Positions 41,201-64,000 of a stretch of 64,000 nucleotides of DNA are shown piece by piece. Location: contig JYFJ02000400.1 of assembly GCA_000934665.2 (NCBI GenBank), positions 1 to 64,000 on the forward strand, read 5' to 3'. The notes beneath the pieces are model-generated. The model was not told the DNA's origin and searched no databases. It worked only from the letters and a program-made list of their open reading frames with translations. The position numbers and the translations under genes are program-made. Each line of letters begins with the position of its first letter. The stretch's first letter is position 1. This DNA is from Catajapyx aquilonaris (Eukaryota).

Positions 41201-44069
41201 AATATTGTCAAATGTTATGTGCATATTTTCCAATTTAAATAATTTTTTAAATTATTGAATTTATATTTGTGTTTACATTCAATTTGAGTGCATTTTGAAT
41301 TTTCAGTAACATGTTCCAGAGCATTTTTCTGATTCACAGAACCTTTTATTTACCGCATACTGATCATGAACTTTGACATCTTCTCTTAATCACCCCATTC
41401 AAGTTGTATTACCCAATACTCACTGTAAAATATGCAACAGAATCTCCACACCTGCTGAAAATCATATAAAATAGTTATGTTCATGCAAGTAATATTTCAC
41501 GGTTTCAATCCAGGGGCGAGAGGCCACAAGAAGAGCCGGAACACCCACACAAAGTGAGCCTTAAGCCTGTCCAGAGGCGGGATAAATCACCTGAAGCTGA
41601 GCCAGAACGCGTTCAGCTGAAGCCAGTGAAGATTGACCCCAAGGCACCACCTGAACCACCAGAGCGTGTGCAGCTGAAGCCGGTTCAGAAGCTGGAGAAA
41701 TCTGCTGAACCTGAGCCAGAGCGTGTCAAGCTGAAGCCAGTTCAGAAGGTGGAGAAGGAGGAGGAACAGCCTCCCGATTGGATTCACAAGAAGAAGCAGT
41801 TGGCCAAGGCAAAGGAGGTGGAGAAGGCCGAGGAAAAATCTCCAGATTGGGTTCAGAAAGCAAAGACCTTTACCAAGTCCAAGGAGGTGTTGGAGGATGT
41901 CGAGAGGGCTCAGAAGGCCTCAATGGAGCCGGCTGAATCCGCGGTTCATGGCAAGGAGAAGTACACATCGACACAAAAGCAGGTTCAGAAGGAAGTAAGT
42001 GTGCATCTATGGTGCTTGTGTTATTTAAGTTAACACTAGCTGATTTATTACCATAGAATGGTATCAGGAATAATCTAAAAAAAACCAGAAGGGTGTAACA
42101 TTGAATGTTTTCCAAATCTCTGCAGCAACAAGGTGATGTTGAGATAACCAGGAAGATCACATCAACCGAAACAACTGAAGTCGAGCATAAGGGAAGGACT
42201 CAGGAGAGAGTTGTTAAGGGACCAGTGGTAAGTTTGCATGCGGTGCAGTAATTGACCTGTGGAAAGTAACTAGTCTGGACTGAAAATTATTCATTTTTTT
42301 TTGTCATATTCAGAAGCCAAGCAAGCCCCCAGTGTTTACCAAGAAGGTCCAGCCATGTCGCGCATTTGAGCGTGAATCTGCACGATTTGAAGTGGAGTTT
42401 GATGGTGACCCGCTGCCAAATATCAAGTGGTTCAGGGAGGACTTCCCCATCCAGAGCTCCACTGACTTCCAGATCTACACCATGAGCACAAAGTCCATCC
42501 TCGTCATCCGAGAGGTCTTCATGGAGGACTCCGGTTCGTACGTCTTCTTACCACAAACTTTCTTTTTAACGTAACGTCGCTATTTCTCTGCAGCCGTGTT
42601 CAGGGTTGTGGCTGAGAATGCAGGTGGCTCTGCGAAATGCAGCGCTAATCTGGTAGTGGAGGAGAGAAAGCTGGGTCGCTCCGGCATTGTCCCTCCCAGT
42701 TTCACCACCACAATCCAGGACACACATGTCAAGGCCGGTCAGCTTGCCAGATTTGATGCAAAGGTTACAGGGACCCGACCACTTGATGTCTACTGGCTCA
42801 AGGTAAATCGCTTGTTGCATTACCAAACATTGCGTATACACCGGAGAACAACGTGTAACTCTCTCTGGTATTTTTTCCTTCAGAATGGCAAGAAGATGAC
42901 TACTGATATTCGGTATAAGATGGTGGAGGAAGATGGCACCTACACTCTTCTGGTGATCGAGACTTTCCCAGAAGATTCTGGAAAATACGAATGTGTTGCA
43001 ATCAACAGTGCAGGGGAAGGCCGCTGTGAAGCTGAGCTCTACGTAGAGGCATCGCCAACAGCTTCCAAGCCCAGCAAACCCACTGGAGCACAGGATCAGA
43101 AACCAACAATTGTGGAGCCCTTGAAGGACCAAAAGGTCAATGAGGGACAGGCCGCCAGCTTTAAGACCAGAGTCACTGGAAAACCTGGTCAGTTTAGGAA
43201 TCACTGATGTATGACTGTAAATAATACACATTGTTTGACACTATCTTTTTGACTACAGTGCCCTCTGTTCAGTGGATGAAGACAGACAAGGTCATAAAGC
43301 AGTCCAAATATTTCCGGATGTCCCAGGAAGGCGACTATCATGTCCTCCGGGTATCCGAGGCCTTCCCAGAAGATGAAGGAACCTACAAAGCTGTTGCCAC
43401 CAATTCGGCCGGACAGGCTTCCACATCCGCTAACCTCAAAGTTTTGGGTGAGCCTATTCTTCCATTTTCAAATCAGCTGAAATGTTACTCTGCAGCCATC
43501 ATTAAACGTGAAATATTTTGCAGTCCCAGAGGTTCGCGAGGTGGCCCCCACACTGGCAAAAATGAATGACGTTACTGTGCCGGAGGGAAATCCTGCCCAA
43601 TTCCGCACTCAAGTGACAGGAGCACCAACACCAACCATTCAGTGGTTCAGAGAAGGACAACTCATCCCTCAGTCGGCTGACTTTCAGGTAAGGAAATTGT
43701 GGATATGCATTTGGATAATTAATACGCAGAGCTGGTTTACTGGAAATATTTTGAAAGTAATTTATCACTCGGAATGGTTGAGACAGTATTAAATTCCTCG
43801 TAAATGCAAAACCATAATATCGTACATCAGAGAATATGTTGATATAGACTAGTAAGTTAAAAAATGTTGTCACAAAGTTTTTACAGAGTTTTTTTATTAT
43901 ACTCATCGCAAAATAAATATCCTTTCAGATGATCCATGAGGCAAGCCATGCTGTACTCCTGATCAAGACCACCTACGTTGAAGACTCTGGTGTGTTCACC
44001 TGCCGTGCAACCAACTCCGCAGGACAGGTGGAGACATCTGCACACCTCAGAGTCCAAAGTAAGAAATGA
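14078..44069 (+). CDS. sls: Kettin isoform of sls: 56 exons, about 5006 aa, 35 Ig domains with kettin linkers
   Basis: Exons: 14078-14246, 17165-17198, 19343-19497, 19573-19725, 19797-19904, 19965-20116, 20186-20549, 20730-20847, 20940-21668, 21788-22161, 22224-22625, 22686-22958, 23026-23242, 23377-23524, 23580-23760, 23826-24220, 24339-24600, 25061-25204, 26065-26466, 26773-27171, 27233-27487, 27554-27697, 27757-28158, 28299-28556, 28628-28771, 30418-30556, 30632-30888, 30948-31087, 31166-31424, 31491-32147, 32379-32522, 32605-33225, 33530-33979, 34062-34205, 34272-34417, 34812-34932, 35062-35464, 35531-36384, 36447-36808, 36865-37467, 37528-37789, 37874-38161, 38233-38464, 38547-38718, 38790-38976, 40299-40504, 40579-40706, 40784-40837, 41514-41994, 42126-42227, 42314-42533, 42594-42802, 42884-43187, 43259-43447, 43524-43687, 43929-44069. 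Total 15021 nt, all phases consistent. MQRQ start, SPPVFEQIFRNARFAHGGNALFEG, DTFEYRLLRE and repeated HFECRL.PV.DP..KVEW..HDFGYVALD / SQH..LEKIQ.LED motifs match Drosophila Sls/kettin as I recall it. Confidence 0.95.
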
Positions 44070-47000
44070 AGATCCATTTCTTTCTACCTGTGTTTCTTCA
44101 ATACCTTTTTTTTTCCTAATTGTAGTAGCTTGTTGTTAAAAATGTAGTCGTAGGTGGCAAGGTATGGTTTACAAGGCAACAAGTGCCTCTGCCACCCGAA
44201 TAACTGTCCTGCAGAATACCAAGGCCTCGTCATTTGCCTGCTCTCAACATCTTCAATTTCAGAGAAACTTTGGTATTCTGAACGATAGTTAAGGTGAGCT
44301 AAAAATTACGTCTGGATCCTCACTTGCTTAATTGGAACCTGAACAATGCCTTGTCTCTTCAAATAATATGTAGTATACATTTTAAAATGCAGTACAAGGT
44401 GTATGGAAAACAAAGAAAAAAAAATTACAAAACATGAAAATTTTGACCAAAAAAAAAATGCATGGTATCCTCGAAGTCGTCGACTTGTAAAAAAAAAATC
44501 TAAATGTGTGTGGATTGTTGGATGGCAACAGAGCCATTTTTATTTCAATGGTGCCGAACAGTCGGGAGTTGAGTGAGAACGTCAGATTCTAGTCACTGTG
44601 TTAATCCTGCAAGATAAAAAGGTTGTTGGTCTTTTATTCAGACCACAGGAATCAATTGGACATGAAAATTATTATTATTATTATTTTTGACCCTACGAAT
44701 TATTCAGATTAGAATTTGACAAGGAATCTTACCTCTTTATATATATATTTTTTTCTTGCTCTTTCGAATACTGTTGTGAACGGTAATAAAACTTTGACTC
44801 GAACGATCGGAGGAAACGAACGTTTCCTAATATGTGAAGGATGCTTCATATCGAAATAGAGCTTTTCTAACATTATATATTTTTCTTTTTTTCCTTTATG
44901 TGTTGTTATCAATACTAGAAGAAATATATATTATCTGGTTGCTCATATATATAAAAAAAAGGATGTGTGAACAATTGTATGTTACAATCAAAAGAAAACT
45001 TCAATAAACGAAACGATCGCTGTGAAAATGCACATAATTTTGTCAGATTTTTTAATGGTCAGATTCATCCCTGGTGGGCATATTTTTTAAAATATTTGGG
45101 ATGTACCAAAAATTGAGCCAGATCAATACAAGTCACACTCTGCTCTGACATATATTTTTGGGGGCTTTCTATTTTTTGACACGAGTAATACAGTTTGTGA
45201 GATTCCACCTGACAGTCTCATCCTCTATTTTCGGAATGTTTGCAAACCATTCGTTTTCCTCAAAAAAAAAAAAGCCCATCCCTTTTGTCAGTAAGCCGAC
45301 CAGCATTTTGCTTTTGTGTTCTTGAAATTCCTGATGCACAAAGTCACGGCTCAGTGATATAACCGCCCTTCAGTCGAGGTTGTGAGTCAGATGCGAATAT
45401 TTTTTTTTTGGTTCCCCCCGAAATTAGCTTTTGGCTTCCATCAGTGAAGTCGACCAGGAATCATAAACATGAACATTTTCCTTTACATAACCAGCTAAGT
45501 ATAGAAACCACATAGTTAAATGTCGTTTCTCTATTTTTTTTGTCGTATGTGTGCGAACTCTGTAAATCCTTTTTTGCTTCTATATCCGACTGAGCCTACA
45601 TGTGATGAGAGAACTTGATCCACGTCTATACAGCCTTCTTCTTTTCGAATTAGAATCGGCCTCCTTAGAGAACTTCCAGCCGCAAAATGCTATTTTGAGA
45701 CCCCCGCCATTTCTTTTTGACTTTGCTGGGCTCCGTTTCCCGAGCTCCAAATATAGATCTCAAGCCCTCCCATCCTTTTTCTTTCTTTTTTTTTTTCTTT
45801 AGGACGGATTTAGAGCTGGGGAAATGCGGGATTTATTACTTGCTCCCGGTGTGTCTCCTGACTTTTTTTTCTGTCGCGGTCTTTTTGGCATGTCCTGTAC
45901 TTACGACGTGACTCGTAAATGCGCCCCTCCAAAGTAGAGTTGTAAACGGGGCCTCAGAGGCTGAGATTAAGGGTCTTGGTGACATCCTCCTTGTCTTTTG
46001 GGCAAAGTTGGATCAGGTTCAGATTCTTACGTGGTGATTCTCCCAATATATATATTTTTTTGTGAAAAAACCAACCAAATGGGTTATAAACGTCACGTTA
46101 TTTCAGGAATACGACGCATTTTCAAAATGAGATATGAAACAATTCCCTCTTGTGTGTCATGGACTAACAATAACAGTGGAGAGGATAAAAATAAAAAGTG
46201 AGTGAGATTGTACAACCAAGTTTTATTGCATTTCTTTTTCCTTGAATACAATACGTGGGGAAGAATTGAAGGATCGAGGGAGATTGGGCACAGATTTATT
46301 TGCAATTACATCATAATTGGAATGTGACCAAAAAAAAAAACATTTCACAAACTTTCTGCTAACGGAAACTACATGCACACATTACAATTTACAGATCTGA
46401 ATAATTTTGAGTGGAGTTTCACTCAATTAGAGCCAATTTCATTCATCACACATTTGAGCCAGCATTTTCTTGCGTGAAATAATCATAACTCCATAACTTC
46501 TTTTAGCTTTTTTGTCCTGGAGACTGAAATGTTTTTAATATGATTTATTATACGAATTAATTAACTGAGCCAATTGAACGCATTTCATATGAAATTATTG
46601 GGTTTTATTTCAATTGCACAGAAGATATTTAAAAAACCACTCAAAATAATTTCGAAAGTTGATCTGAGGAACATATTTCAGGCAGGAAAATATTATACAG
46701 GGAAACCTGTCTATAACGGACCCTCACACATCGGAAAAGTAGATTTTTTTTTGTCGTCGTAAACAGTGGGAAATACGTTTTTTTTTTTCTCCTTCAGAGC
46801 GACTCTGCTATAACTTAGCCATCTAGGTTTTACTGTAAAATTATTTCTCCCACAAAACTTGGGACGTAACATAATTTTTCTCGGAAAACCATTTGACCTA
46901 CTTTGTTGGTAACAACTTCCGAAAAAACCACTGCTTACATAAAGTTTCGGCACATATTTAAAAATTGGGGGGTACAAAGTTAGAAGCAATTAAGTTTTTT

Positions 47001-50000
47001 GCTATAAGAACGTGTTCCCGGTTTATTTTTCTTCACTTCCACCCTATTCCTGTCTACCTCCTTCGGTTCAGGTCTGCACAATTTTTTTCTTTTCGCATAC
47101 TCTTTTTCCCCTCCCCCTCCCCCCTCCCCTCTCCTCCACCCCCCCCATAAACGTAACGTGAGAGTCAGGCCCTTTCACATGACCCTATTTGGCGAGGGTT
47201 GACTCCTTCTCTCTCCGGTAACGACCGGATGACCCTATTTAGTTGGAGCATGCAACAGACACACTCAGATAAAATAAAATAAAAAAAGAAGAAGTAGTGA
47301 CATGTAGTCTGGTTGGTCTTAATTCAAGTCGAGATACATTGGTGTGTACTCCTTTCGCGAAAAGGGGGACAACACTTTCAAACGAGACTGCGGCCTCGCA
47401 TTTCGAAGATTCCGACCGGACCCATGCCTAAAAATTTACGGGGCATTTCTCAGACCTGTAATGCGCGAAAAGAAATTTCCACAATTATTTTTAGAGCCTT
47501 TCGGACATTCACTGCCCCTCCCAAGTAATTGCGAATGGGCGGTTACGTGCAATTCTGGCTAATTGGACGGGCTAAAAAAAATGTAATTTTTCACACATCC
47601 CTTCTTGAGCATAAAGTGCAAATTTGCTATTTTAAAATGATATCAAGTACATGTAATGGCAATTTAACCAATCACGAAAATAATTGCAATAATATACTAA
47701 CGGCCTTGTTTCAGAATTATTGAAATCATGTCCGTATTGGTGATAATAATTGAATTTTCACTTGCTCATGAAAGTGTCAGCAGTGATTTGTACACAGCAT
47801 TAGAAAGCTCATATAAATCTTATAATTTTGTCCACTCGTGCAAAATTTTCATCTAGAGTGCAAATTGCACCTTTGCATCCGAATATTACCCCTTTAAATT
47901 GGCTTTATTTAATTAAACGCCAGATAATCGAGATATTCACCGATACGGACATCGTATATGCAATTTTTCGCACAATTTTAAGGATTGCTTGGCTTGACAG
48001 TGGGAATGTCAAACAATGGGTTTTTCCTGCACTTTGGAGCCGTTTTGCGGGGTAGATGTTATTTTAAGGATCTAACTGCTGGGCGAGCGTTTGAAAGTGT
48101 TGGCCCCCGTACACATCCTTTCGCTAATTAACGAGCAGGTGCACCGAGAGGGGGAAGTGTCACTTGTCACAGGCGCCAGAATCAGTCTCGGCATCCGGAG
48201 GTTTTCACACTTCCCAAGTTTTTTTTGTTGCGAAACCGCGCACTTTTGGCTATTTTCAGTCCAACTCACTGAAACCGGATCACCACTATGTATAGTCACT
48301 ATCACTGTTTCATGCTGTATATGATATTGCGACACTGCCCACCGCACTTCTTGTAAACTCGACCGCACAGCTCAACCTTCGTCCACATACTGTACACACG
48401 ACATGAGGTCTGAGAAAGGCTGTGACGTCACTCGCATTAGTCACACACTGCCCCCCACACACCTGCCCACCTACACAAAAATTTTGTGGTCACTGGCCTC
48501 CAACCTCATCTCCTTCTACTCTGAAAGTGTGAGTGTGTGAGTGTGAGGTAACCCACACACATACTCGAGCCAATCCCCCACTAGACGTCACCAGAGGTGG
48601 GGGGCGATCCCATGTGGTGCGCCTCCCCCCCTCCACACTTACCTACATGTTGCCTAAATATAGTGCATTGTAAGGTCCGATTATTGCAGGCTAACAATGT
48701 TGCTGTTGGCTGACCCGCTTTTTCCAAACTAGTAGACTCCTTATATGGAGACGTACGGGTTGTCACCTAAATCACTCTCTTTGAGTGGCCCAATTGGTGG
48801 TCTGGACCCAGCCGTACTTGTTAGTCATGGTGTTACGAAACACTTGTTTGGAGGCCAGACTATTACTTATGTGCGAATTGGATCGGGCCTGCATTTCGCT
48901 CCGGTTATGATATGGCATCGCCTCAAGGCATGTTGCGTATCCTTGCTTTTCATGCAGCCCGCACTGCACAGCCTTGAGGAAAATAAATGTCAGAAATAAA
49001 ATAATGCTGGACATGTACACATAGAAAATGAGTAAACTACAGCCAACACTTGGTTTCGATAACATGCCACTGCCTACAAACCCTTCATGCTTTTGCAGTG
49101 GCAGCAGAAGCATGAATTTTATCAGCATGCAGGCCACACACATTCAATACCATTTGAATGATTGAACTCCTGCTTTGATATCAGTTGCTAAAATTAAAAT
49201 TGAGGTCAAGCACCTTGCGACTTCACACACACGTATATATAGTACCAACCATGCAAAAAATATTATTGGTCTGAAAAAAACTTGCTGCCTTGGGATAGAT
49301 CATTAGTCAAAACCCGTGTGTCTGAAAGTGAGGAAAAGTGACTTCTGTCATGCTAAACGTCCTTGTAAAAATAACTTCTTCGCATGCAGACTTGTTACGC
49401 ACACTTTTCTGGACTACATCCTAATGGTGCCTGTAAGTTCCCCTAGAGAACGAAACAGATGTTTACAGAGAAATACGTCTAGAAATACCTCCCGCTGTTG
49501 TGTGATTAATTGTTGCATCTTTCTTGACTTTCAGGGAGGACAAAAGTCAGCACAGCGGCACATGTAACCGAAGGAACAAAGGAGGGAATTCAGCAAGTCA
49601 CTCAAACATCACAGGGTAAGCAATTAACACAGGAGGAGATCTCACGTCAGCAGTACCAATCTGTTGAAGATAGCGAGTATCTGTCACTGAGTCGAGATGT
49701 CAGAGTGCGAAAGGCAATGGATGTCCCGTGGAGAGTGCCTGAAGAAGGAGTTCAGCCATACTCGACGTCTGAAGACACCAGTTGGCTCCGAAGCGACCAA
49801 AGGGTTGATGAGACCAAGCAGAAGCGGCTACCATGGCAGCCTAAACTGGAGAAGGAAGAGGATAAGGTTCCAGAGTGGTTGAGGCAACCGAGGGAAGAGG
49901 TTCTGAAGCGAGTTCAGCGGACGGAAAAGGTCATTGAGAAGGAAACACTGGAGCAGGTGGAGCTGAGGCCATCGAAGATTGAGAAACGTCCACTTGATGC

Positions 50001-53000
50001 AACGCAGTTAGAGCAAGTTCAGCTGAAGCCTGGCCGAAGAGGGTCAAGGCCTGAAGAGACTCAAGAACCAATACATCTGAAGCCATGGCAGAGAGGTGAA
50101 AGACCTGAGGAAACACCTGAGCAAGTACAACTTAAGCCGTGGCAGAGAGGTGAAAGGCCCGAAGAGGCACCAGAGCAAGTCCATCTGAAGCCATGGCAGA
50201 GACCGAAGCCAAAGCCTGATGAATTTGGTCAACAGCCATATTCAGAGACTGAAGATACATCTCTCCTTGATCGTGGTGAGCAAGTTGAAGAGACTGAAAG
50301 AAGGAAGCCGAAGCCTGAAGAAAAGCTGCCAATATGGCAACGGAAGAAGAAGGAGGAGCTGCCCGAATGGCTGAGACCAAAGGAAGAAGTGCTGAAGCCC
50401 ACCAAACGAGAGCAGAGGGTCATTGAGAAGGAGACATTGGAACAAGTTGAACTGAAACCAGGTAAGCCTATTGAGAAGCCTGGTGAGCCAGGTCCTGAGC
50501 AAGTTCAGCTGAAGCCATGGAAGAAAGAAGCGCCAAAGGAAAAGGAAGTACAAAAAGAAGAGACAGGAATCCGTCCATACACAGAAACAGACGATGCAAG
50601 TCGACTTCAACTTCAACGCCAGGTTGAAGAAACGAAAGAGGAGTTTCCAAAGCCAAAGCCTGAAGAAAAGGTGCCAATATGGATACGGAAGAAACCTACA
50701 AAAGAAGAGACGGGTGTTCAGCCTTACACTGAAACGGATGATGCGAGTCTCCTGCAACTTCAGCGTGGTGTTGAAGAAACAAGAGAAGAGGCACCGAAGC
50801 CAAAGCCTGAAGAAAAGGTTCCAATATGGATACGGAAGAAGCGAGAGGAGGAGGAGGCACCGAAAGAACCAGAGTGGAAGAAGCCCAAAGAGGAAATGCT
50901 GAAACCAACAAAGAAGCAGGAGAGAGTAATTGAAACTCCTACTTTAGAGAAGGTTGAATTGAAGCCAACAAAGCGGGAGGGATATAAACCAGAAGCAGAA
51001 ACACTTGAACAAGTTGATCTCAAGCCTGTCCGTCGTCCAGAAAAGCCTGAGGAGAAACCTGCTGAGCCAGTACATCTAAAGCCATGGCAGAGGCCGACGG
51101 AGGAGATGCAGCCGTACACAACAGAGGAAGATGATAGCCGACTTCTTATGGATAGAAAGATTGAGGAAACTAAAGTGAAGCCTAAACCTGAGGAAAAACC
51201 AAAACCAGAAGAGAAATTACCAATTTGGCTCCGGAAGAAGAAGGTGGAAGAGGAGGCTCCAAAACCAGAGGAGGGAGTTCAACCTTACGCTGAGACTGAA
51301 GATGCCAGCAGGCTGCTTCTGGCCAGAAAAGTCGACGAAACCAAAGAGCAGAAGCCAAAGCCAGAGGAGAAACCAAAACCAGAGGAGAAGGTCCCCGTAT
51401 GGATTCGAAAGAAGAAGGTTGAAGAAGAAGCTCCCAAGCCAGAAGAAGGGGTTCAACCTTACGCTGAGACTGAAGATGCCAGCAGGCTTCTACTGGACAG
51501 GAAAGTTGAGGAAGAGAAGGAACAGGCACCAAAACCAGAGGAAAAGGTACCAATCTGGATCAGAAAGAAGCGAGAGGAAGAGGAGAAGAAGGTGCCTGAA
51601 TGGCTGAGACCAAAGGAAGAAGTGTTGAAACCCACAAAGAAAGTCGAGAGGGTGATTGAAGCACCGACCATGGAGACAGTTGAGCTGAAGCCTGGCCAGA
51701 AGATTCAGAAGCCGGAAGAGCAGGCTCCAGAACCAATCAAGTTGAAGCCTGTAAAGAAGGAGAAACCTGAGGAGGTGCCTCAACAGCCTTATGTCGAAAC
51801 AGAAGATGTGTCTCTCTTGGATCTGACTCGCAAGGTAGAGGAAGAGCTTCAGAGAGTAGTTGAGAAGCAGGAAGAAAGACAGAAGCCAAGATGGGGTGAA
51901 AAACCAAAGGAAGAAGAGAAGCTTCCAGAGTGGAGAAGACCCCAGAAAGAGAAGCCGAAGGAAGAGGTACCAGAGAAGGTTGAGCTGAAGCCAGGTCGAA
52001 GAATAGAAAAGCCAGAGGAGATTCCAGAGAAGGTTGAGCTGAAGCCTGGAAGACGACTGGAGAGACCGGAAGAAGTTCCGGAAGAAGTTCATCTGAAGCC
52101 GATTCCTAAGCAACCAAAGCCTGTTGAACCAGAAAAGCGAGAGGAGGTGCAGTTGAAACCGTTTCAGAAGGAGAAACCAGAGGAAGTCAAACCAACACGT
52201 AAGCTTCCATGGCTCAAGCAGGCCAAGAAAGTCGAGGAAAAGGTTGAGAAGCAGGTTGAGAAGGGAGAATTTGTCACGGAGGAAGACACCAGCTTGCTGA
52301 AGATTGGCGAGAAGGTGACTGTAGAGAAAGTGACTGAGAAGGTGGAAGAAAAGGTTGAAGAGAAGGTGCCATTCTGGAGGCGCCGTAAGCCCAAGGAAGA
52401 GAAGAAGGTTCCGGAAGAAAAGAAGCCGGAAGAAAGTTGGGCTGACGTCACTTTGGAAGAACCAGAGAAGAAGGAATCGCCAACTGACGAAAAACCCAAA
52501 CTGCCTTGGCTGAGAGACGTCAAGAAGAAGAAGCCGAAGGAAGAAGCACCAGCACCAGTGGTGACATGGAGGCGAGGAGTGACCAAAGACACGGAGGATG
52601 AGGTGGTAGAAGTTACTCTGAAGCCTGTCAAGAAGGAGGAGAAGAAACCAGAAGTGACTCCCATGGAAACAGTCGATCTGAAGCCAGTGGAAAAGAAGCA
52701 GCCAGTTCAGGAAGCTCCTGAGCCTGTGAAGCTGAAGCCAATCACACGCGAGAAGCCGGAAGAGGAAGTTCCTGAAGTGAAGCTGAAGCCTGTCCGTCTA
52801 CTTCCAAAGCCTGAGGAAGAAAAGCCTGAACAAGTTCAGCTGAAACCATTCAAGCGAGACAAACCGGAAGAGGAGAAGCCTGAACCAATGAAGCTGAAGC
52901 CAATCACACGCGAGAAACCAGAAGAGGAAGTTCCTGAAGTGAAGCTGAAGCCTTTCCGTCAACTTCCAAAGCCTGAGGAAGAAAAGCCTGAACAAGTTCA

Positions 53001-56000
53001 GCTGAAACCATTCAAGCGAGACAAGCCTGAAGAGGAGAAGCCAGAACCAGTGAAGCTGAAGCCGTTCCAGAGGGAAAAGCCTGAAGAAGAAAAGCCAGAA
53101 CCAGTGAAGCTGAAGCCCTTCCAGAGGGAAAAGCCTGAGGAGGAAAAGCCTGAACCTGTGAAGCTGAAGCCTTTCAAAGTGGAGAAACCGGAAGAGGAAA
53201 AGCCTGAACCTGTAAAATTGAAGCCATTCCAGCGGGAAAAGCCTGAAGAAGAAAAACCCGAGCCCGTGGCACTGAAACCAGTTCGCCAGATTCCAAAACC
53301 GGAAGAAGAAAAGCCTGAACAGGTTCAGCTGAAGCCTGTGAAGCGTGAAAAGCCCGAAGAAGAGAAACCTGAACCTGTGAAGCTGAAGCCAGTCGTTCAA
53401 GAAAAGAAACCTGAAGAGCCCAAACGTGAGGAGGTTCAGCTGAAGCCAGTTCCAAAGGAGGAAGAAAAGCCAAAGGAAGCTCCATGGAGGAGGGCACCAG
53501 TCGAGAAGGAATTTGTTCGAGTGGAAGAGGAGCAGGAAGAGGTTGTTGTCACTGCTCAGGTCACTGAAGTCAAAGAAGAGGTGGTTCTGAAGCCAAAGGC
53601 TGTTGAAAAGCCTGAGCTTGAACCGGTACAAATCACTGAAGCTCCAGAGGAGGTCAGGCAAGCTGAAGTGTCTACAACGGAAGTGGTGCTCAAGACTGTA
53701 GAGAAGAAGGAGAAGAAGCCGGAGCCGGAAGAGAAGCCCAAACTTCCATGGCAACGGGGAGTTAGGGTCGACAGCCAGGTCAGGAAGGAAGAGGTCGTTG
53801 AGATAAGGGAAGAGGTGACTCCGGTTGTGGTGGCTCAAAAGACAGAGGTTGTGGAGAAGCGTAAGAAGGTGGTGAAGAAGCATGTGGAGAGAGGAGTGGC
53901 TCCACGTTTCACCAAGAAAGTGCAGCCGCAGATCACTACAGTCACCAGCACTGTGAGGTTCCAGGCGCAGGTGGAAGGAGAGCCATTCCCTGAAATCACA
54001 TGGTTCAAGAACGATGCGGTGATCCAGCCAAGCAGGCGGGTCTCCACATCAGTCTTTGAATCGACCGCAACCCTGGAGATAACAGAGGTGGTGGAAGATG
54101 ATGCCGGAATGTACAGCTGCAGGGCAAAGAACCCTGCCGGAACAGCAACCACCACCGCAAACCTGCTTGTCCGAGGTACATGCGTGAATCCCCACGCATG
54201 AAAATGTTGTGTCCAATGTGTGCGCATGACTCTAACTCAGCCGCCAGAACAAAAAGTGACCATTTGTGTTAATTACACACGTATTTGGTGCATAAACATG
54301 TATTTTTATCATTTTGTTGTCAAAAAGTGTGCAGTACTGAAATTACTTGGCTGACCTTGGCAGTTTTTGAGTAATCCGTGCAACCGAGCATATTGAAGAG
54401 TATGTAGTTTAAAGCATTTAGAGGACAAGCACATATTCATGTAGGAGGTAATAGGCAACAGAAATAGGTGTGATTCATAGCAGGTCCGTTTGCCAGTTTG
54501 GCTGCAAGTTCAAAGTGTTTTATATCTCTCAACAGTGTTGGGAGTACCTCGTGAAAATGCTTAATTTATTAATGAGCATGTGAGAATTTGTGATTTCACT
54601 GAGTGTGCAATGCTAACAATACTTGACGCATTCCAGGTACGCAAATGATGTAATATGCTGCCTAGTCACTTAGTTTCAGCAATTTTTTTAAAGGCACCTA
54701 CTTGAAATTTGTTGAGCCATAACAGCATTCTGCAAGTTGCGTACATTTAACAAGTACATGTAATGACTAACATGTAAGAGTGTCTGTGTTGTTGTGATTG
54801 TATTACTTTATAATCATGTGTCTTTAACATTTTTTAGCAGCCAAAGAAGTGGAAGAAGGGGAAGCACCTCACTTTACGGAGATTCTTCAGCCGATGCAGG
54901 CAAGACCTGGAGAGCGTGCCACTTTAACATGCACTGTTGTTGGTCGTCCTGCACCCATGGTTACCTGGTACTTGGGCGAGGAAAGAGTCATGCCGTCTCC
55001 ACGTCACCAGCCTCAATATGACAAAACTACAGGCCTCGCTACGCTCACTATCACTGAAGTCACGCCTCAACACGAAGCCTTCTACACCTGCCATGCCACG
55101 AATCCATATGGAAAGGCTGTATCCAAAGCTAATGTTGTGTTGGGAGAAGCACCTATTGTTAAAAAGGTGGAGCCAATGCAAGCTCCAGTCATCACAAAGC
55201 CGGTTGAGGCCCAGATTGCAAAGGTTCACTCCAGGGTTGACCTGGTAGCCGAGTTTGAAGGCAAGCCGGAACCAACTCCAAAATGGTTCATCAACGGCAA
55301 AGAGGTGAAGCCAATGGACGATGTTGACATTAAGACTGAGAAGGGAAAGACCACTTTGTCTATTGCCGATGCATTTTCAAGCGATTCAGGGAAATATGAA
55401 GTTCGGGTAACCAATGAAGCTGGAGAAGCCAGGAGCTCAGGGACTGTTCGCGTCACTGGTGAGTTGGCCCATTATTATGCTGTTCAGATGTAATGATTTT
55501 GAGGGCACTAATTTCCTCGTGTGATGATGCAGAACCAACCAAGCAGATGGCTGAGGCAGTTCCTCCCAGCTTTGTTCGTCAACTTCGACCTCTGATTGTA
55601 CCCGAAAAGGAGGTGGCTATATTGGAAGTCGTGGTCAAGTCATTCCCAACATGTTCCTTCCAGTGGTCTCTCAACTCAAAGCCTATCAAAGTATGTTAAC
55701 ATTACATATCTTTTATAGTACAGGTGTGGGCTGACCTTTCTCTAATTTTATAGCATTCCAAGGACCTCCAAATAGCGACCACAGAAAACAGATCAGTTTT
55801 GATGATCAACGAGGTCCTTTGGGAGCATGCTGGCGAATTCACCTGCAGAGCCGAGAATGTTGTCGGATCGGTGACAACCACTGCCTCCCTTAACGTAGTG
55901 AAGGAGACCCTCACCGAGGAGTTGGTGGCCCCCATTGTCACAGTGCCTCTGAAGGACCTCAAGGTCATGGATGGCGAGGAGGCACACCTCATGTGCGAGG

Positions 56001-59000
56001 TCAGTTTTCACTTGAGGAATCCTGAAGTTGAATTTTATCATATTGCTGTTTCTTGACGCAGGTACATGGGAAGCCAACTCCAAAGGTGCAGTGGCTACAC
56101 AAAGGGGAGCCAATCCGAGAGCATAAGGATTGGAAGGTGGTGCATGGTACCCAGGGTGTCTGCGAGATGGTCATTGCAGAGGTGTTCCCAGAAGATTCTG
56201 GAGAATATGCCTGCGTCGCCACCAACAAGGTGGGCGAGGCCATCACAGTGGCCAGCCTGTCAGTCGAACGTGAGTGTATCATCAGCATATGCACAAAGGG
56301 CTGTCTTACCAAAATGTGGTCTTGCAACTTTCAGCGTATGAGTACGTTCCAGACTCGGAAAGTGCTTCAAGAACGGCAGGAACTGACGAAGCAGATGTCA
56401 CCAGTCCGAGTTCAGAGGAGGAATTGCCAGCTGAGAAGGTGCGTTTGAAAGATGGAAAAGCATAGGGCTGACATAATCAACCTCTATTGTTGTTTGGTTC
56501 ATTTGTAGGAAGTATCATCAGAAGAAGAGGAAGTTGGCACGGCCCCTGTATTTGTCCGTAGGCTGCCAAGTGTCACCAATGTTAATGACGGAGAGCCTGC
56601 CAGGTAAATATTTTATGGCTCTGCAGTATACGCAGTAAATTACATGTTTTTCTGTCATGCCAGATTCGAAGTCAAGGCAGAGGGTCGTCCAAAGCCACAA
56701 GTTAAGTGGTACCACCAGAGCAAACCTATTGAGCCCACCGAGGAATTCCAAGTTGATGATTATGAAGACGGAACCTCAATACTTAACGTCAAGGAAGTTT
56801 TCCCTGACGATGCAGGGGAAGTTCTGTGTACAGCACAGAACCCTGTTGGTGTTGACACCACCGTCACTGAGGTTCTGGTTCACGGTGAGTCGCTGGAAGA
56901 AATATCAATTGGCCCATGTCATCGTATGAAGCTAAATATATGCATATTTTTCCTCCACATTCTAGGTGTTTCAGGAACTGCCAGTTGTAACACACAAACA
57001 CCCACACATATACATTACACAATGCCAAGTGTCTGTTTTTCAGAAAAGTGTGCTAATTATTTACATGTTTTTCAACAGGTTGCAATCCATAGCTGGTTCA
57101 TCCGCTGAACTACTTTTACGACAGGAGATGGAAATGGTAGCGTTCACTCATTATGTTACGGAATGAGACATTGCTGTGAGCTTCAACAATGTCCATTGCA
57201 TAAATGAGTGCTCTACTTTTTTCATTCCTTCTGTAAACAAGTCCAGCTTTGGATGAGCCAGCTATAATTTGCAATTATTTTGCAGTTCAGTGTGTTAATT
57301 GAGTATGCAATTTTTGCCACCCTTCAGAGTACTTGGGCACCAAGGAGTACCGCAAGCCTGATTGGGTGACGAAGATGGAGGAACTGAAGTCAACACGTAC
57401 AGGTAAAGGCTCTCATGCACGCCCACGCATGAGCTCCTCTTCGTGCTCGTCCATGTCTGTAGACAGCCTAGAATTGCATGCCTCACGTCGTGCATCTGAA
57501 GTGACCTCCACAAAAACGACTTTGGAGATTAGACGTGTGAGAGTGCCTGCAGCTGAAGCGATGACTGATTACCTTCAGCACCATCGCCGATCAATAAACG
57601 AAGCCATTGAGGCCTTAACACCTCAAACTGGAGCAAGACCCAAATCAAAAATACCTATCCCATCTCGGAAGTCAAAGTCACTTCCCACCTCACTAAAAGC
57701 TGAGGACTTCCCGACAGAACCAAGGGAAATCGACCCCTTTTCACTCCCGATGCTTCACACCGCAGACAGCAATGAAGAGCTTCAGGAGTTCCTTCTTCTC
57801 GAGAGCCAGTGCATGGACGACTCTGAGTCACGCGGCTTTAACGACGATCGCATGTCATGTTAACCTAGTCCCATTGTGTGCATAATAGTAGTGGCATGCA
57901 AGACTAATAACACTGTCAGGTGGGTGTGCCTTCCTTTATCTGATGTTGCAGCTTGATTTAGCCGACTTGTTCATTTCCAGTCGTGAAACAAGCACCAATC
58001 TTCACCCAGCAAATTGTGGACATGAGGGCAAAGGAGACGGAAACTGTCACACTTGAATGCAAGTTCAGCGGGACACCAACGCCAGGTAAATTTATTTGTT
58101 GCACAACAGTCACAACTCATGCATCCAAAAATGGTATGTTTAACGTCACCAAATACTGTGTACTTTTCAGAAATTGCATGGTACAGGAACGACATACTCC
58201 TCACCAACTCAAAGCAGATCCAGATCAGAATTCTGGAAGACAAGACAACCTTGACACTGGTTCATGTAACTCCGGACATGCAGGGCGAGTATGTTTGCAA
58301 GGCCACCAACGAAGAAGGCGTCCAGATCACCAGGGCTTATTTGTACGTGGAAGAGCTGACCACAGAGGAGAGGTCAAGGAAGATTGTGAAAACGACCGTG
58401 GTGGAAGAGACGAGAGTGACCAGGAGGAGAAAGCCGAAGAAGGAAGTTGAAGAAAGGTCAGTGCCCACTTATTTCGAATTCTCTATTCACCGATTATATG
58501 GCAGGTATTTTTATTGGGTGCTAGTGATGTAAACGGGTGTATTAAAGTGAATGTTATATTTTGAGTAGCACTGTGGAGTACCAGGAAACTGAAGACATAA
58601 CACTGCTGCGGGCTAGAAGGAAGATAGAGGAGGATGCCAGGAGACTTGCGAAGAAAGCAGTGGAGGTCACTGAAGTCACCGAAGAAGAGAAGGTGGGGAA
58701 GCTCAAGAAGGTCAAACCAGAAGAGGTGAGTCTTGCACCTGTAGCTGGTTTGTTATCAGTCAGGTTGCTTTCAACGTCTCTCATTTTATGGTGAATTCAG
58801 ATATGTAAATTGTTTGTACTTGTAGCAACGTAAGGATTTGGCCTTTGCATGAGTCCGATTGACAATGAAGAGATGTTGAAAGCACATTAATTTTTCTATA
58901 TGTGTCCATATTTCCCCCCACAATTTGGTCACCGTAATCATTGCCCACACATTTCCTGTCAACAAAAATTCAAACATCATAAGCCACATATCCTAAATCA

Positions 59001-62000
59001 TAGGGTTTAACCAGTACACAAGAAACACAGTTATCAAACATGTGGGGAACACAAATTCTTGCAGACAGTGGCCGAACCCAAAGCAACTCCAACCATGACT
59101 GCAGAGGTGACAGAGACAAGGCCAGAGCAGCCTCTGGATCAACTCGTACAGCCAAAAAAGCCAGAGAAGGTTCGCGCAGAGAGAAAGGTGTCCTTCCAAG
59201 AGCCGTTGACAGTGTCCGAGGTTAAGCATGAGGCCGAGGTGGCCACTATGGAGGAAAAGAGGAGAACAGTAGTGACCGCCGAACGCAGGTGGTCATCCAG
59301 AGAGTCTGTGACAGTCCAGCAGGTTCAGCCGGAAATGCAAACAGAGGGACTTACGAGGGAATTCCCTGAAGCCAAAGCACGACCTTCAGAACAAGGTGTG
59401 CAAGAGGCAGTCACTGTTGAAACTATCATGACCCAGGTCAAACCAGGTGACCTCAGGAGGTTCACACCGAGAACAGAGGAAGCAACAGTGGACTTGAGCA
59501 CTATTGAATCACTCTACGTAGAAGAGGTGATGCAGCAACTGTCCACAAGACCATTTGGACCAGGAGAGAAACCCATGAGGGAAATGGCAAAGATTGGCTT
59601 TTTGATGACCCAGGGAGTAACCGTAGTTGAGATTCAGGAGATGTTTGACACTGGAAGGTTCCCTGCTCTGAGGACACCCGAAGCCGAGAGGGCTATGGTA
59701 CACCTGGTGGAGCGGGTTGGGTACAGTCCTCTCGTCACACAGGTACACAGCAACATGCTAGTCCCAATGGCCCACTATCGCATGGGAGCCCAAAAAACTA
59801 TTTTTTCAGTTTTTCAACAACCCGAATTCTGGCTTACTCTTGTTTTACACTCACACATGATCCTTACAACACACTGTTTTCAGTTTTTCAACAACCCGAA
59901 TTCTGGCTTACTCTTGTTTTACACTCACACATGATGCTTACAACACACTGTTTTCATTTTTTACCCCTTGATTGTCACCATGCTTCACATTTTAATACCA
60001 CACTACCATTCATAAAACCCTATACCTCATTATGAAATATCAAAATGGCACTGTTTTCAATAATTGAAACTTTTGCAGGCGCACGACCTGACTCTGCACC
60101 TTTCAACTGCCCTTTCCGCTTACCTCTACGCCTCTCTGAGACGGCAGCAATAATTTCTACCCCACACCAATGACATTCATTCATTATATTACATCACAGC
60201 ATAATCCCAGCAACGACTAGTGTGTACACATAGCAGTCTCGTATGACCATTACAATGAATTACACTATTCGTTGCTGGCTACCCCATTTCTGGGATTATG
60301 CTGTGATGTAATGAATAACGAATGAATGAACCAATAACATGTTCAACATGACACTTCTGTCCCAAACTGCCACATTAAACATTTCACACGCTTATAATCA
60401 ACCTTAACATGAAGTCAAATTTAATTTACCAGGCCCATAAACAGAATTAGGACCTGAGCACCATTAATTTCTTACTGAACGAGAAACTTTTGCTTACCAT
60501 TTGAGTGGTGCGTTCCTTGGCATTTCGGTGAACAGGATGGTAATTCATATTTCACTCTGGCAGGTGCGAGCGGAGGAGGTGATAACTCGCCGGAAGTCAA
60601 CTTCAACTGGGTTCAAGGCTCTTATGAAGATGGTGGAGGTTCACCCGGTAAGAGTTGAGGAGGTTATGACACAGATGCAGCCTGAAGACTTCATAACCAG
60701 CGCAGTCGAAACCACAACTAGTCAGGTGACACAACAGACCAGGGCTGGGATGGTGGTGCAGGAAGTTCAGGTCCAGACTGGCACCGTGCCACTGGAGGTA
60801 GACCGCACAAAGACTGACACTGCCACCATGAGACTCACCCACACACAGGAGTCCGCACAGGTCAGAAACCCAACGGAAAATATCCACCCTCAACTCTCAT
60901 ACTCATGCAGAGAAATGCACATTCATAGATTACCTACTGTCAAACAGTTCACATAACTTATGCAATGCACATTAGCTACATTACATTTATTATTGCAAGT
61001 ATTACGTCGCAAAAGGCACAGACGAAAATGCCATCTGTTATTATGTTGAAGGCATAACTTTTGTTTCGATGTAGGTGATGCAAACCGAGACCCAGATTGG
61101 ACTTGGTCGTGTGACCAGGCAGAAGGTGACACAGGAGACGGGACAAGTGACAACCACGGAGGAGTTCCAGAAGGCTACTGTGGAAGAAGCAAGACATTTT
61201 CTCAGCAAAGGTCAGTGCAGGAGAAGAACTTGTGCCGTGCGTGGTTAGTTCCCCGTAACTACTTGTTGTTAGCATTTCATTCACTTAGCTACTTGTTTCA
61301 CATTATGCTGAAGTAATAAGCTATTACCAAAATGTGTTGTAAATATTGTATCTAATGTTATGTCTGCATAGTGTATTTAAAGTCATCACGTTGCATTTAC
61401 ATTAGCTTATTTTGATAGTCCTTTGTATTCAGTTTTCCTCTTCTTTTTTTATTTTTTATTGTTTCCTTGTTTTGTTTGTGTTTTTTGTTTGCCCCTGAAA
61501 TTATTTCATGTGAATAAAATTGACATTTCCCCCATTTTCTTGTAGACTAATTATTATTTCATTGCACCTGCTAACAATCCCATTCCCATTTCTTTTGTTA
61601 TGCAGTACCGTAGTTATTGGACATTCATGTGACCTTGATGTGTGCAGTATCGTTTGTTCATTTATTTACATGCCATGATCAATTTCAGTACATGTATTTT
61701 GTGCTGCAACAACATAAATAACATGCCTTGTTTGCAAAATCTTTTAGAATTGACGAAGAAGATGCGTCTTCTGAAGGCGACAGAAAAGGAGTTGGAAGGT
61801 AGGAATTTTGACTATCACAGTTTAGTTAACTTATTTAGGTCATTTTATTTCTTGATTAAAATCTTGCCAATGAAGTTTACTACATTCTGATAATTTGGAA
61901 TATTCATCATGGAAAGATTGATACAAATTTGAGATAGTTTGTATTTAAATATTTACTCATATGTCCTGCTTCTTATTTTTATTTTATGCATGGTAGGCTG

Positions 62001-64000
62001 TAAGAACATGATTCTTTATCATTTCAAATGCAACTCTATATTTCTTAGCATGTGTTTATTTTGGTACCATTATAATTTCCTGCTAGATAATTTGGGGGTT
62101 GTCATTCCCATTTAAGTTATTAACCCTTCGTTGCAGCTATTTTTATTTCAGTTTAAAATAATTTTTATGATTTTGTATCGACTGGTTTGATCTCCATAAC
62201 AACTGCTTCTCAATGGAATACTACACTTATTTATGATTTATTGTAACACTTTACACATTCCTCCCCCTGAATCAATGCATTTTCGAAATGTATTCCCTGC
62301 GTTTGCACTCGCAAGGATTTTGTTGGCAAGATGACCTGCACATCCGCGTTACTTTATTCACACCAACTAAACGCACAATCCTCACTCTGTTATTCACCGA
62401 ACATCTCTCATGCATCTGTCTTGTAGAATACTGTGCGCCCTTCTTCCACATTAGCATACCTAGCTCATCTAGTTACCATAACAAACTTTATGCTTCAGCC
62501 TAGGGCTAATTACCCAGCCTTACCGACATAGCCTGAAACTTAGCAAACACTTACAACCTAACATTGTGCTCAACCAGAGTCCCCATATATAAAAATACGC
62601 ATTTACTTCCTTATATGTGATATACGATAAATGCTTACTGTACAGTAGATCCGAACTCTGACTCACTTTTACTATCCGTAATAATATTGCACTCTAACGA
62701 TACCAGTATATATCATTCCAAACTTATAAATACCCCCAGTAATTAAGCATTGCATGGACAAGTACTGTGCCATAGTGCGAAATTGAGAAGCCAATAGACC
62801 CTTCACAAGCTTTAAAGCCATAATTGCAATGCTCCTTAGTCTGCAGATAACAATATTTTCACACTCATCAAAAATCACCAAATGCACCAACATTTTCCAA
62901 TCCTTCGTACATAACAGCATTTACCTCAAAAAAAAAAAACTTTACATGTGTCCATAATTACTGTACTACCTGCAACACAATGCACCTATTTTTACCAGAT
63001 TACCATGCATTACACAACACATTTACTTCTGCATTTTCAATATAACACTGAAATGTTCTCTGTTCTGGTTTATTTTATTTTTCAATTTTACAATTTGGAA
63101 CTTTTATTTGTATGGCGCTTCATGAAATATTGTGAACTGAGCATTTTTTTTTCATTTCCAAATATTTTTCTGTACATTTGTTCATGAAATTTTGCACACT
63201 GAATGACTTGGAATTACTTTTGGTTTGAGCCAGCAAACATTATGTATTTTTATGAAGATATTTTTTTTGAAGCAATCAGTTAGTTACATGTAGGCCTACG
63301 TACTCTCAATATTTGACATCTATTTGGTTAAACTTTTGTTTTTGAGTTGGTGGACTATTATTATCAGCTTTTTTGCATGGCTTGAACCAAAGTAACTTAT
63401 CAAATCACTTTTTGAATTCCTTAAATTTTTTTTCTTACATAATTTTTGTGAATTATGTGCCAAGCTGGCCATTCAATTGTGAGCAAAATTTTCGGATCAA
63501 ATATTATTCAAAGGTGTAATATTTTTATCAAATCCATTTTTATTTGATTTTTATTTTAAGTTCAACAAGATTTTGTTACAACCCTCCCACCTTCCCCCCA
63601 TGATATCGCTTGCTTATAAAACACTGCTAATGGATGGCTTGTGGGACTGGATAAGCTGCAAGTGTGCAACGTCACCTTTTCTTCACAACTTCCAGTTTTG
63701 CTTTCTTTTTTCGTCTTTATCATTTCTGCTACTGCCTTGGCCCACTAATTACAAGTGCTGAAGAGAACCAAGGTTTAAGTTTTTCTGCCATGTGTCTTGA
63801 TTTCTACAGAAGAAAAGCTGCATGAATGGGAGTCTCCAGTGGAGGCAGTGAAGCCTCAGTACACAGAAGAAAGTGTAGACACTGCCAAGGGACGCGAAGA
63901 AAAGCCTCAAGTACTCAAGGACGCTGACCTTCGAAGGCCTGAAAAGCCTGAAGAGCTCAAAGGGTTACAAATAATTGACAGAGGAGTTAAAATTGAGGAG
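14078..64000 (+). CDS. sls: sallimus (D-titin / I-connectin family), long isoform, 3'-truncated by the window edge
   Basis: Kettin exons to 44058, then phase-consistent exons 49535-54175, 54838/54841-55458, 55533-55690, 55754-55999, 56062-56269, 56335-56438, 56509-56603, 56664-56884, 57328-57402, 57981-58085, 58171-58456, 58569-58725, 59065-59742, 60564-60860, 61075-61210, 61748-61798, 63810->64000. They encode PEVK sequence, further I-set Ig domains and E/V/T-rich segments. Confidence 0.92.
14846..14855. promoter_or_regulatory. MEF2 consensus site in the first sls intron
   Basis: CTATATTTAG matches YTA(A/T)4TAR and sits in a G-rich context. Another match, TTAAAAATAG, is at 11755-11764. Short motif, may be chance. 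Confidence 0.35.
17165..17198 (+). CDS. sls: 34-nt microexon of sls (VQGMVLQAPGQL)
   Basis: Strong acceptor ctctttcatttcag and donor TT|GTAAGT. It converts phase 1 to phase 2, exactly bridging exon 1 and the exon at 19343. Confidence 0.85.
24750..24871. mobile_element. Small MITE-like element, PIF/Harbinger(Tourist)-like ends, intronic
   Basis: Terminal inverted repeats GGCCGCGTTTACATGT ... ACATGTAAACGCAGCC (1 mismatch), flanked by TTA / TGA (degenerate 3-bp target duplication). No coding capacity. Confidence 0.5.
37468..37527 (+). other. 60-nt GC-AG intron
   Basis: CAG|GCAAGT ... ttttactcacag|GTT. Removing it restores PPKFITQ-VESLGV in Ig domain 29. Confidence 0.85.
44785..45008 (+). terminator. 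Candidate kettin polyadenylation signals within the intron of the long isoform
   Basis: AATAAA at 44785-44790 and 45003-45008 in an AU-rich 3'UTR-like tract after the stop at 44067-44069. Confidence 0.45.
48423..48748 (+). promoter_or_regulatory. Muscle-type motif cluster (candidate internal promoter or enhancer)
   Basis: CRE TGACGTCA 48423-48430, Inr-like CATTAGTC 48435-48442, E-box CATGTG 48611-48616, MEF2 CTAAATATAG 48654-48663, CArG CCTTATATGG 48739-48748. Confidence 0.45.
49535..54175 (+). CDS. sls: Giant 4641-nt PEVK exon ending in one Ig domain (phase 1-1)
   Basis: Acceptor ttgactttcag at 49533-49534 is in frame with ORF 49705..54201. P/E/V/K-rich repeats, then APRFTKKVQP..DAGMYSCRAKN. 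Donor CGA G|GTACAT. Confidence 0.92.
52700..53460 (+). repeat. Coding PEVK tandem array of about 54-nt units (EEKPEPVKLKPFQREKPE) with a 162-nt higher-order duplication
   Basis: Repeated aagctgaagcc/gaaaagcctgaa. The string atcacacgcgag recurs at 52741 and 52903. Confidence 0.9.
59807..59954. repeat. Intronic 74-bp tandem duplication
   Basis: 59807-59880 and 59881-59954 are identical except tgatcc/tgatgc. Confidence 0.92.
60174..60328. repeat. Intronic long inverted repeat / hairpin
   Basis: Perfect 23-bp arms, ATTACATCACAGCATAATCCCAG (60188-60210) and CTGGGATTATGCTGTGATGTAAT (60290-60312), with extra outer and inner pairing. Confidence 0.85.
61748..61798 (+). CDS. sls: 51-nt symmetric (phase 1-1) sls exon ELTKKMRLLKATEKELE
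   Basis: Acceptor cttttag, donor GAA G|GTAGGA. Purine-rich island in AT-rich intron, in phase with both neighbours. Confidence 0.7.

Follow-up and report, generated by a model that had tools for sequence, protein, structure and literature searches.

The 64,000 nucleotides (nt) of Catajapyx aquilonaris considered here (contig JYFJ02000400.1, positions 1 to 64,000 of the forward strand; the whole of this stretch is called the window) carry what appears from its layout to be a titin gene of the Sls type. The choice of splice donor at one of its exons, which begins at 57328, probably determines whether full-length Sls or a truncated Sls, ending in a tail of its own that is not an immunoglobulin (Ig) domain, is produced. 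Both splice forms of this exon are present in RNA contigs. An earlier note, made from the letters of the sequence alone, had proposed that a shortened Sls/titin isoform with a non-Ig tail of its own is made, and the proposal is supported by spliced RNA that spans the exon extension, by a conserved in-frame protein family to which the tail belongs, and by the same placement of that family between Ig exons elsewhere.

Two competing 5' splice sites at one exon

An AG acceptor at 57326-57327 precedes the exon, the translation of which from 57330 gives YLGTKEYRKPDWVTKMEELKSTRT. In its short form, seen in the RNA contigs and in the spliced translation, this "GTKEYRKPEWV" exon, which is conserved in arthropod Sls, covers 57328..57402 (75 nt; this and all other features given here are on the + strand) and encodes (E)YLGTKEYRKPDWVTKMEELKSTRT. 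It follows an Ig-domain exon at 56664..56884, which is matched by tblastn to the upstream Ig of Timema; an RNA contig joins this Ig exon in frame to the exon at 57328 (56884|57328, with GT..AG intron ends). The proximal 5' splice site, GTAAAG at 57403..57408, is a phase-1 donor (ACAG|GTAAAG, at 57402|57403) whose letters are also readable as Gly-Lys codons (G|GT AAA G). That this donor fits the acceptor at 57981, as was first suggested from sequence, is seen directly in RNA contigs that hold the joint 57402->57981 with GT..AG ends. Rereading of the sequence likewise upheld a frame that stays open past the donor for 153 codons (57402-57860) to a TAA stop at 57861..57863, and every peptide string quoted in the earlier note was found in the translation. 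The tail, an exon extension at 57402..57860, is defined by this open frame, an RNA contig, family matches and a codon-usage log-likelihood ratio; measured from stop to stop, the open reading frame (ORF) covers 57303-57863 (186 amino acids, aa), and the stop lies 19 codons beyond the conserved end motif described below.

The RNA data are the contigs of one run, the kind of which is not recorded as RNA; because these contigs skip at least 15 GT..AG introns, the run is taken to be cDNA-derived. From the joints, 13 exons were modelled between 56062 and 64000, and when spliced the RNA-confirmed exons form one uninterrupted frame. Acceptor 57981 is entered by two joints, one from 57402, which skips 578 nt, and one from 57919, which skips 61 nt. 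A 574-nt contig matches 57373-57916 without differences and then joins 57981; the whole extension checked for RNA cover (57403-57863) is thus spanned, above what would be expected of intron background. The long exon is 57328-57919 (592 nt, of which 517 nt are extension), and the 56 nt past the stop (57864..57919), which lie in the same RNA contig, would begin the 3' untranslated region (UTR) of the long form. Its intron, at 57920..57980, runs from a distal donor of phase 2 (CAG|GTGGGT, at 57919|57920) to the acceptor common to both forms (57980|57981), and its 61 nt match the size of the short introns of this gene (60, 62, 65 and 70 nt); larger neighbouring introns (443, 339, 821, 214, 537 and 2011 nt) are skipped by contigs that bridge them. 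The next Ig exon, at 57981..58085, whose acceptor both forms use, is matched by tblastn to the Ig located downstream of the tail in Timema. Mean word depth is 16.5 and 16.6 for the contigs with the long- and short-form joints, which is a rough hint only: contig depth does not rank isoforms, and RNA starts, ends and levels are not readable from contigs.

One part of the original proposal has to be changed. Read-through into an unspliced intron had been envisaged, whereas the extension is instead a long exon with a second donor, spliced to the next Ig exon. What the locus has is a pair of competing 5' splice sites; an unspliced intron that ends at a poly(A) site is not what is seen. The absence of AATAAA between the stop and the acceptor, recorded as a caveat at the time, was confirmed by a motif scan that detected neither AATAAA nor ATTAAA in 57864-57980, and the signal is missing there because the long exon is spliced onward to the next Ig exon. 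None of the contigs of this run showed a loose end that carried a poly(A) stretch. Between 57301 and 64000, AATAAA occurs only at 57593, within the tail ORF, and at 61513. The former (57593-57598) overlaps the codons for S-I-N-E of a conserved helix and the RNA contig runs through it; its use as a poly(A) signal would yield a non-stop mRNA. The long form reads ...DDRMSC*, then hits further stops in the downstream exons; with a distal donor in phase 2, an acceptor in phase 1 and the TAA ahead of both, the long form must therefore end at 57861.

A simple scheme would accommodate these observations. The spliceosome would pick between two 5' splice sites that share acceptor 57981. Use of the proximal site (57402|57403) would give the 75-nt exon and leave the remainder of the giant protein in frame, and use of the distal site (57919|57920) would give the 592-nt exon, in which ...KSTRT is followed by 153 codons and the stop at TAA 57861. 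The latter would yield a truncated Sls, with its end immediately behind this group of Ig domains. Because GTAAR doubles as Gly-Lys/Asn codons, use or neglect of the proximal donor would itself be the switch between the two forms. The conserved helices, DYLQHHRRSINEAIEAL and the invariant LHTADS.EELQEFLLLES.C, would most likely dock a partner protein; an S-x-I-P motif is present as well in some lineages.

Coding character and conservation of the tail

The tract is coding sequence, not an open intron. The remark in the earlier note that read-through is usually shorter elsewhere in the region holds, in that 153 codons is the longest run past the 12 RNA-confirmed donors (59, 8, 1, 74, 153, 121, 25, 22, 63, 31, 12 and 30 open codons), the 121-codon read-through being a run across an 85-nt intron into the following exon. 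Of 20000 shuffles of the tract's own composition, 13 reached at least 153 open codons; of 20000 random sequences with the base composition of introns, 2 did so. The higher GC content noticed at first is also real (0.49-0.51, against 0.38 in the preceding intron). By a codon-usage log-likelihood trained on RNA-confirmed exons against local introns, the tail frame scores +16.8 bits, compared with -47.5 and -55.9 bits for the other two frames; six true introns give -62 to -118 bits per 100 codons by the same measure. The codon usage of the tract is thus exon-like in the claimed frame only, and its product belongs to a conserved protein family. The ratio of nonsynonymous to synonymous substitution rates (dN/dS) is 0.21-0.47, below 1, in 14 informative pairs from six closely related loci, in which tail lengths of 1170-1179 nt are all multiples of three; this comparison of sequences shows the tail to be under purifying selection. 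Neither a lack of RNA cover above intron background nor frameshifts or stops in the orthologues, the two results that the earlier note had named as contrary evidence, were found.

Homology searches with the 177-aa product as query matched 34 proteins of 97-310 aa and 80 of 311-2000 aa, and an exhaustive search of cluster representatives gave 96 matches at E<=1e-3, 42 of them at <=1e-10. The named matches are all from insects (a leafhopper and several ants and bees, all entered as "uncharacterized protein LOC...", two Timema models and Gonioctena). A 4411-aa protein of the beetle Gonioctena was the sole tail carrier in a search of proteins of 3064-5000 aa, and P0141 was the only long model obtained from the cluster representatives. 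The string EL[QK]EFLLLE is present in 165 of 172 fetched proteins, 60 of which also have the upstream-exon motif G[TS]..YRKP.W in the same frame. In 160 of the 165 the ORF ends 11-100 residues beyond EL[QK]EFLLLE, the exceptions being 115, 119, 139, 190 and 804 residues, the last in a long gene model.

The family is best defined by its end motif, EPREIDPFSLPMLHTADSNEELQEFLLLESQC in the window (57717..57812, residues 130-161), which appears to form acidic amphipathic helices. An alignment of 65 sequences has 17 invariant columns, which lie in the stretch EPRE.D...LH.DS.EELQEFLLLES.C, and the window product carries EPRE(I/L)DP..(F/Y).QLHTADS.EELQEFLLLES.C near the end of its ORF. A second conserved segment, AAEAMTDYLQHHRRSINEAIEAL (57549..57617), holds the "DYL(N/Q)SHR.S" motif and coincides with a helix predicted at residues 74-96; this middle helix, (M/I)TDYL(N/Q)SHR.S(I/L)..IE.L, is present in the window, though only 39 of 167 members have its motif. 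In the window, where identity to relatives is only 35-53%, both the DYL helix and the end motif are intact. Absent from the window tail is the motif SFY(L)LSPIEE.SEPS of insects, which 107 of 167 members carry and which is taken as a lineage feature.

Pfam gave no match above threshold for the window tail or four relatives, and a profile search of the tail against the PDB gave 0 matches at E<=1. ESM Atlas matches to an arthropod "hypothetical protein" cluster, a cingulin-like protein and PDZD4 scored 0.75-0.81, below the level at which they would be counted, and were rejected. Judged from its sequence relatives, the tail is an unannotated arthropod protein family. The literature searches, which had FlyBase and Burkart et al. 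2007 outside their scope, found no description of the tail or its motif. In the Hymenoptera (ants and bees; P0021, P0022, P0025 and P0078 are among the examples) the RefSeq entries are stand-alone proteins, named "uncharacterized protein LOC...", that end in ...EDERGTMSDY; in these the upstream "GTKEYRKPEWV" part looks degenerate (e.g., AYRMTENV in P0022).

The earlier note had also pointed to the syntenic position in other arthropods as a check, and both gene models and genomic loci place the tail at the same point between Ig exons. In the models of the stick insect Timema (P0065, P0141) and of Gonioctena (P0173) the order is Ig, then GI.GTKEYRKPEWVTHMEEL..L.G(N), then the tail, then the next Ig. 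Eleven arthropod genomic loci (L001-L011) were collected from metagenomes; L002-L009 are close relatives, termite-like, and the set amounts to about four lineages. Flanking Ig exons were sought in them by tblastn with Timema queries alone. The upstream Ig was found in L001, L003-L005, L008 and L011, and the next Ig, 0.3 to 3.4 kb beyond the stop, in L001-L005 and L011; both flanks are therefore present in L001, L003-L005 and L011, with the next Ig only in L002 and the upstream Ig only in L008. The tail of the window has the same setting, between two I-set Ig exons of a titin-like gene.

All 10 of the loci in which the junction is present have a GT inside a G[KNT] codon (GTAACA, GTAACG or GTACTT), and the frame continues through it, just as in the window the tail is in frame with a G(T/S)KEYRKP(E/D)WV..MEEL exon across a donor set in a Gly-(Lys/Asn/Thr) codon pair. 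In L002-L005, L007-L009 and L011 an AATAAA lies 150-215 nt beyond the stop, followed by a T-run in the termite-like loci; this fits a true terminal exon in those loci and L011, unlike the window.

Predicted structure, candidate motifs and gene context

AlphaFold2, run with the 65-sequence alignment, gave the window product a mean predicted local distance difference test score (pLDDT) of 64.9 and a predicted template modelling score of 0.28, with helices only at residues 11-23, 74-96, 136-144 and 147-162. The first lies in the GTKEYRKPEWV exon, that at 74-96 has a block pLDDT of 83-93, and the last two belong to the end motif. As modelled, the tail would be mostly disordered, with short helices and no globular fold, which fits work through short docking motifs.

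SxIP is an EB1-binding consensus, and the earlier note had drawn attention to an SKIP in the tail that fits it. The SKIP (S-x-I-P, 57645..57656) does lie in the kind of setting that such motifs have, a basic, Ser/Pro-rich stretch, GARPKSKIPIPSRKSKSLP, that is predicted to be disordered (block pLDDT 54-59), and to this extent the suggestion stands. Its conservation is partial: no more than 78 of 167 members (82 under a looser pattern) of a Hymenoptera-rich sample retain [FY]P[RK]S[KR][IL]P at the corresponding position, and it has been lost in many lineages. EB1 binding by SKIP is possible but weakly supported.

GCAUG is the Rbfox site, and two GCATG elements within 57427..57480 (57427 CGCATG and 57475 TGCATG) lie 25 and 74 nt past the proximal donor as candidate Rbfox sites. 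There are 5 copies of GCATG in 57200-58100, compared with a window mean of 1.31 per kb, a weak enrichment, and copies near the donor are found in 3 of 5 lineages (the termite-like loci have three within 150 nt, L011 has one, and L001 and L010 have none). In Drosophila, Rbfox1 and Bruno1 are established regulators of the splicing of muscle isoforms (PMC8742874, PMC11081514). Regulation of the switch through GCATG and Rbfox may be pursued as a lead only.

The gene around the exon has the expected landmarks. Kettin-type ORFs of Ig and linker (linker motif ...LED.SRYQR...) are found on the + strand at 19300-39100, followed by PEVK-like repeats at 41470-54201, which include a single ORF of 1557 codons (49528-54201) with KPEEEKPEPVKLKPF-type repeats. 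I-set Ig exons follow the PEVK-like region, and the tail is downstream of the PEVK-like exon and about 6 more Ig domains. This sequence layout matches the literature description of arthropod I-band titin (Sls / I-connectin), and the gene is assigned to that type.

Other features of the same run deserve mention in their own right. Donor 58725 is joined to both 59065 and 60564, and the 678-nt exon 59065-59742 (226 codons, in frame) is alternatively skipped. Within the 2011-nt intron at 61799-63809, a 462-nt RNA contig (depth 7.4) matches 62558-63019. No obvious ORF is present in this contig, which ends near an A-run and may represent an exon or UTR that is not annotated, a repeat or a different transcript. 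At 60262-60316, inside intron 59743-60563, several contigs match only in part and continue on both sides into dissimilar sequence (loose ends), which suggests a repeated element expressed from elsewhere.

Alternative explanations and known truncated titins

Several points weigh against the reading that donor choice yields a truncated Sls. The joints into 57981 rest on 30 and 27 letters on their shorter side, below a 31-letter bridging rule, and the contigs are short branch contigs from one run whose RNA origin is itself deduced from joints. The stop is 56 nt before the junction, the transcript is spliced onward, and no AATAAA is nearby; a long-form mRNA that ran on through the gene would have a 3' UTR of great length, crossed by numerous junctions, the profile of a target for decay. 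These last features are what regulated unproductive splicing would predict, in which the long exon is a poison extension, the mRNA is degraded to tune the amount of full-length Sls, and the conserved peptide is the legacy of a coding role elsewhere. The window tail is also shortened, with 153 codons compared with about 300-450 in insects, and it is without SFYLLSPIEE.SEPS, as might be expected of such a legacy. Against this stand the end motif and the DYL helix, both intact at such low identity to relatives, and the exon-like codon usage in the tail frame only. L010, moreover, has a fully conserved tail and the same order of stop and then donor (CAG|GTAACT at 1031, phase 1, 10 nt past the first base of the stop codon). 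The equal word depth of the long- and short-form contigs points the same way, as a rough hint only. Unproductive splicing is for these reasons considered unlikely.

The Timema and Gonioctena models treat the segment as an insert that keeps the frame; in some insects it may also be used in this way, and the same has to be considered for full-length Sls of the window, through an unobserved donor ahead of the stop. Two long gene models (Timema, Gonioctena) splice the tail to the next Ig, and a phase-1 donor is found just ahead of the stop in three other lineages, a further point against a purely terminal role: in L001 (at 4005) CAG|GTAAAT, 68 nt ahead of the stop; in L011 (at 1830) AAG|GTAACG, 20 nt ahead; and in the termite-like loci (L002-L009, after "RGA(V/F)S") CAG|GTATTA, found by manual reading with 6/9 matches, below the cut of the script. 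In the window, by contrast, the only donor of >=7/9 past the motif is 57920, which is beyond the stop and in phase 2, and the RNA contig continues past the stop as far as 57916. Both in the window and in L010 the stop comes ahead of the donor, and therefore only the terminal reading is possible there; an internal insert in the window is accordingly given very little credence. A nested independent gene, with the tail ORF expressed as a small protein from an internal promoter, is a quite improbable alternative. It would account for the RefSeq stand-alone models of 180-430 aa (Macrosteles, Linepithema, Dufourea, Habropoda, Temnothorax, Harpegnathos and others) and could make use of in-frame ATGs that exist within the window tail. 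On the other hand, frame continuity with the upstream titin exon, seen in the window, in 10 of 10 loci holding the junction and in 60 ORFs, would be needless for a separate gene; RNA joins that upstream exon to the preceding Ig exon; and the Macrosteles model begins in the translated polypyrimidine tract of the preceding intron and looks like an artefact of ORF calling. Lastly, retention of introns is common in transcriptome assemblies, and a chance open frame in an intron retained in unprocessed RNA might look much like the extension. This possibility, which has next to no probability, is refuted by the protein family, by dN/dS below 1, by the shuffles and by the removal of a 61-nt intron from the same contig.

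The preferred reading, donor choice between a full-length and a truncated Sls, can be extended to a more ambitious one that is offered tentatively and may well prove wrong in one or another of its parts. The tail would be an undescribed module of arthropod I-band titin, in which a dual-coded GTAAR donor toggles between a giant and a truncated form, the acidic end helix recruits a partner, GCAUG (Rbfox) may set the switch, and the stop is followed by onward splicing here and in at least one other lineage; the truncated form would be the ~700-kDa Sls(700) or large kettin. If this were true, it would give the ~700-kDa Sls(700)/large kettin isoforms their molecular identity.

The question has some importance, as the stiffness of the sarcomeres and the length of the I-band in arthropod muscles depend on which titin/Sls isoform is made, and Kettin and Sls(700) have been under discussion for two decades. 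A conserved tail at a fixed position in the gene is a sequence handle (for an antibody, tag or peptide) on one truncated isoform across arthropods, and it offers a candidate docking motif for a partner search as well as a compact two-donor switch for minigenes. It also exposes a problem of annotation, with RefSeq stand-alone "uncharacterized" genes in the Hymenoptera and the leafhopper and with two insect models that splice the tail as an internal segment.

Truncated titins with unique ends are as such already known, in Kettin, Sls(700) and Novex-3, and it is the tail family that appears to be undescribed. Kettin has about 4800 aa, and among proteins of 3064-5000 aa no Kettin with this tail was found, only the beetle model, which is weak evidence. 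Drosophila Kettin (Sls-PA, about 527-540 kDa) is similar to the long form in being truncated by not splicing onward and in having a short unique end with its own stop, according to two studies (PMC9886278, PMC3207145). The same studies put the end of Kettin directly behind Ig35, where an early poly(A) site is used (PMC9886278), with an AATAAA ~400 bp beyond the stop (PMC3207145). Kettin thus ends upstream of PEVK and has its own poly(A) signal, whereas the window tail is beyond the PEVK-like exon and ~6 Ig domains, has no AATAAA past its stop and is spliced onward, 57919->57981. A Kettin-type end for the window tail was rejected on these grounds: its place after the PEVK-like ORF 49528-54201, the missing poly(A) signal and the onward splicing.

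Novex-3 of vertebrate titin is encoded by a large terminal exon that serves it alone and has a separate poly(A) site. Novex-3 and the tail showed no relation in sequence, and the named matches of the tail family are all insects. The likeness is one of design: Novex-3 is described as a short isoform made through an alternative exon with its own stop and a unique non-Ig C-terminus (PMC13649281).

The closest parallel in position is with Drosophila Sls(700) and with the large kettin (~700 kDa) known from Manduca and Lethocerus. Recent work places Ig44 in "Sls-700" (PMC9886278), and a study of Manduca reports forms of about 500 and 700 kDa, with sizes like those of Lethocerus and Drosophila (PMC7432240); a truncated Sls that reaches about Ig44 would end at roughly the place of the window tail. 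The same recent work questions which short Sls forms exist and where (PMC9886278). Taken by position alone, the window tail is a good candidate for the end of this 700-kDa class.

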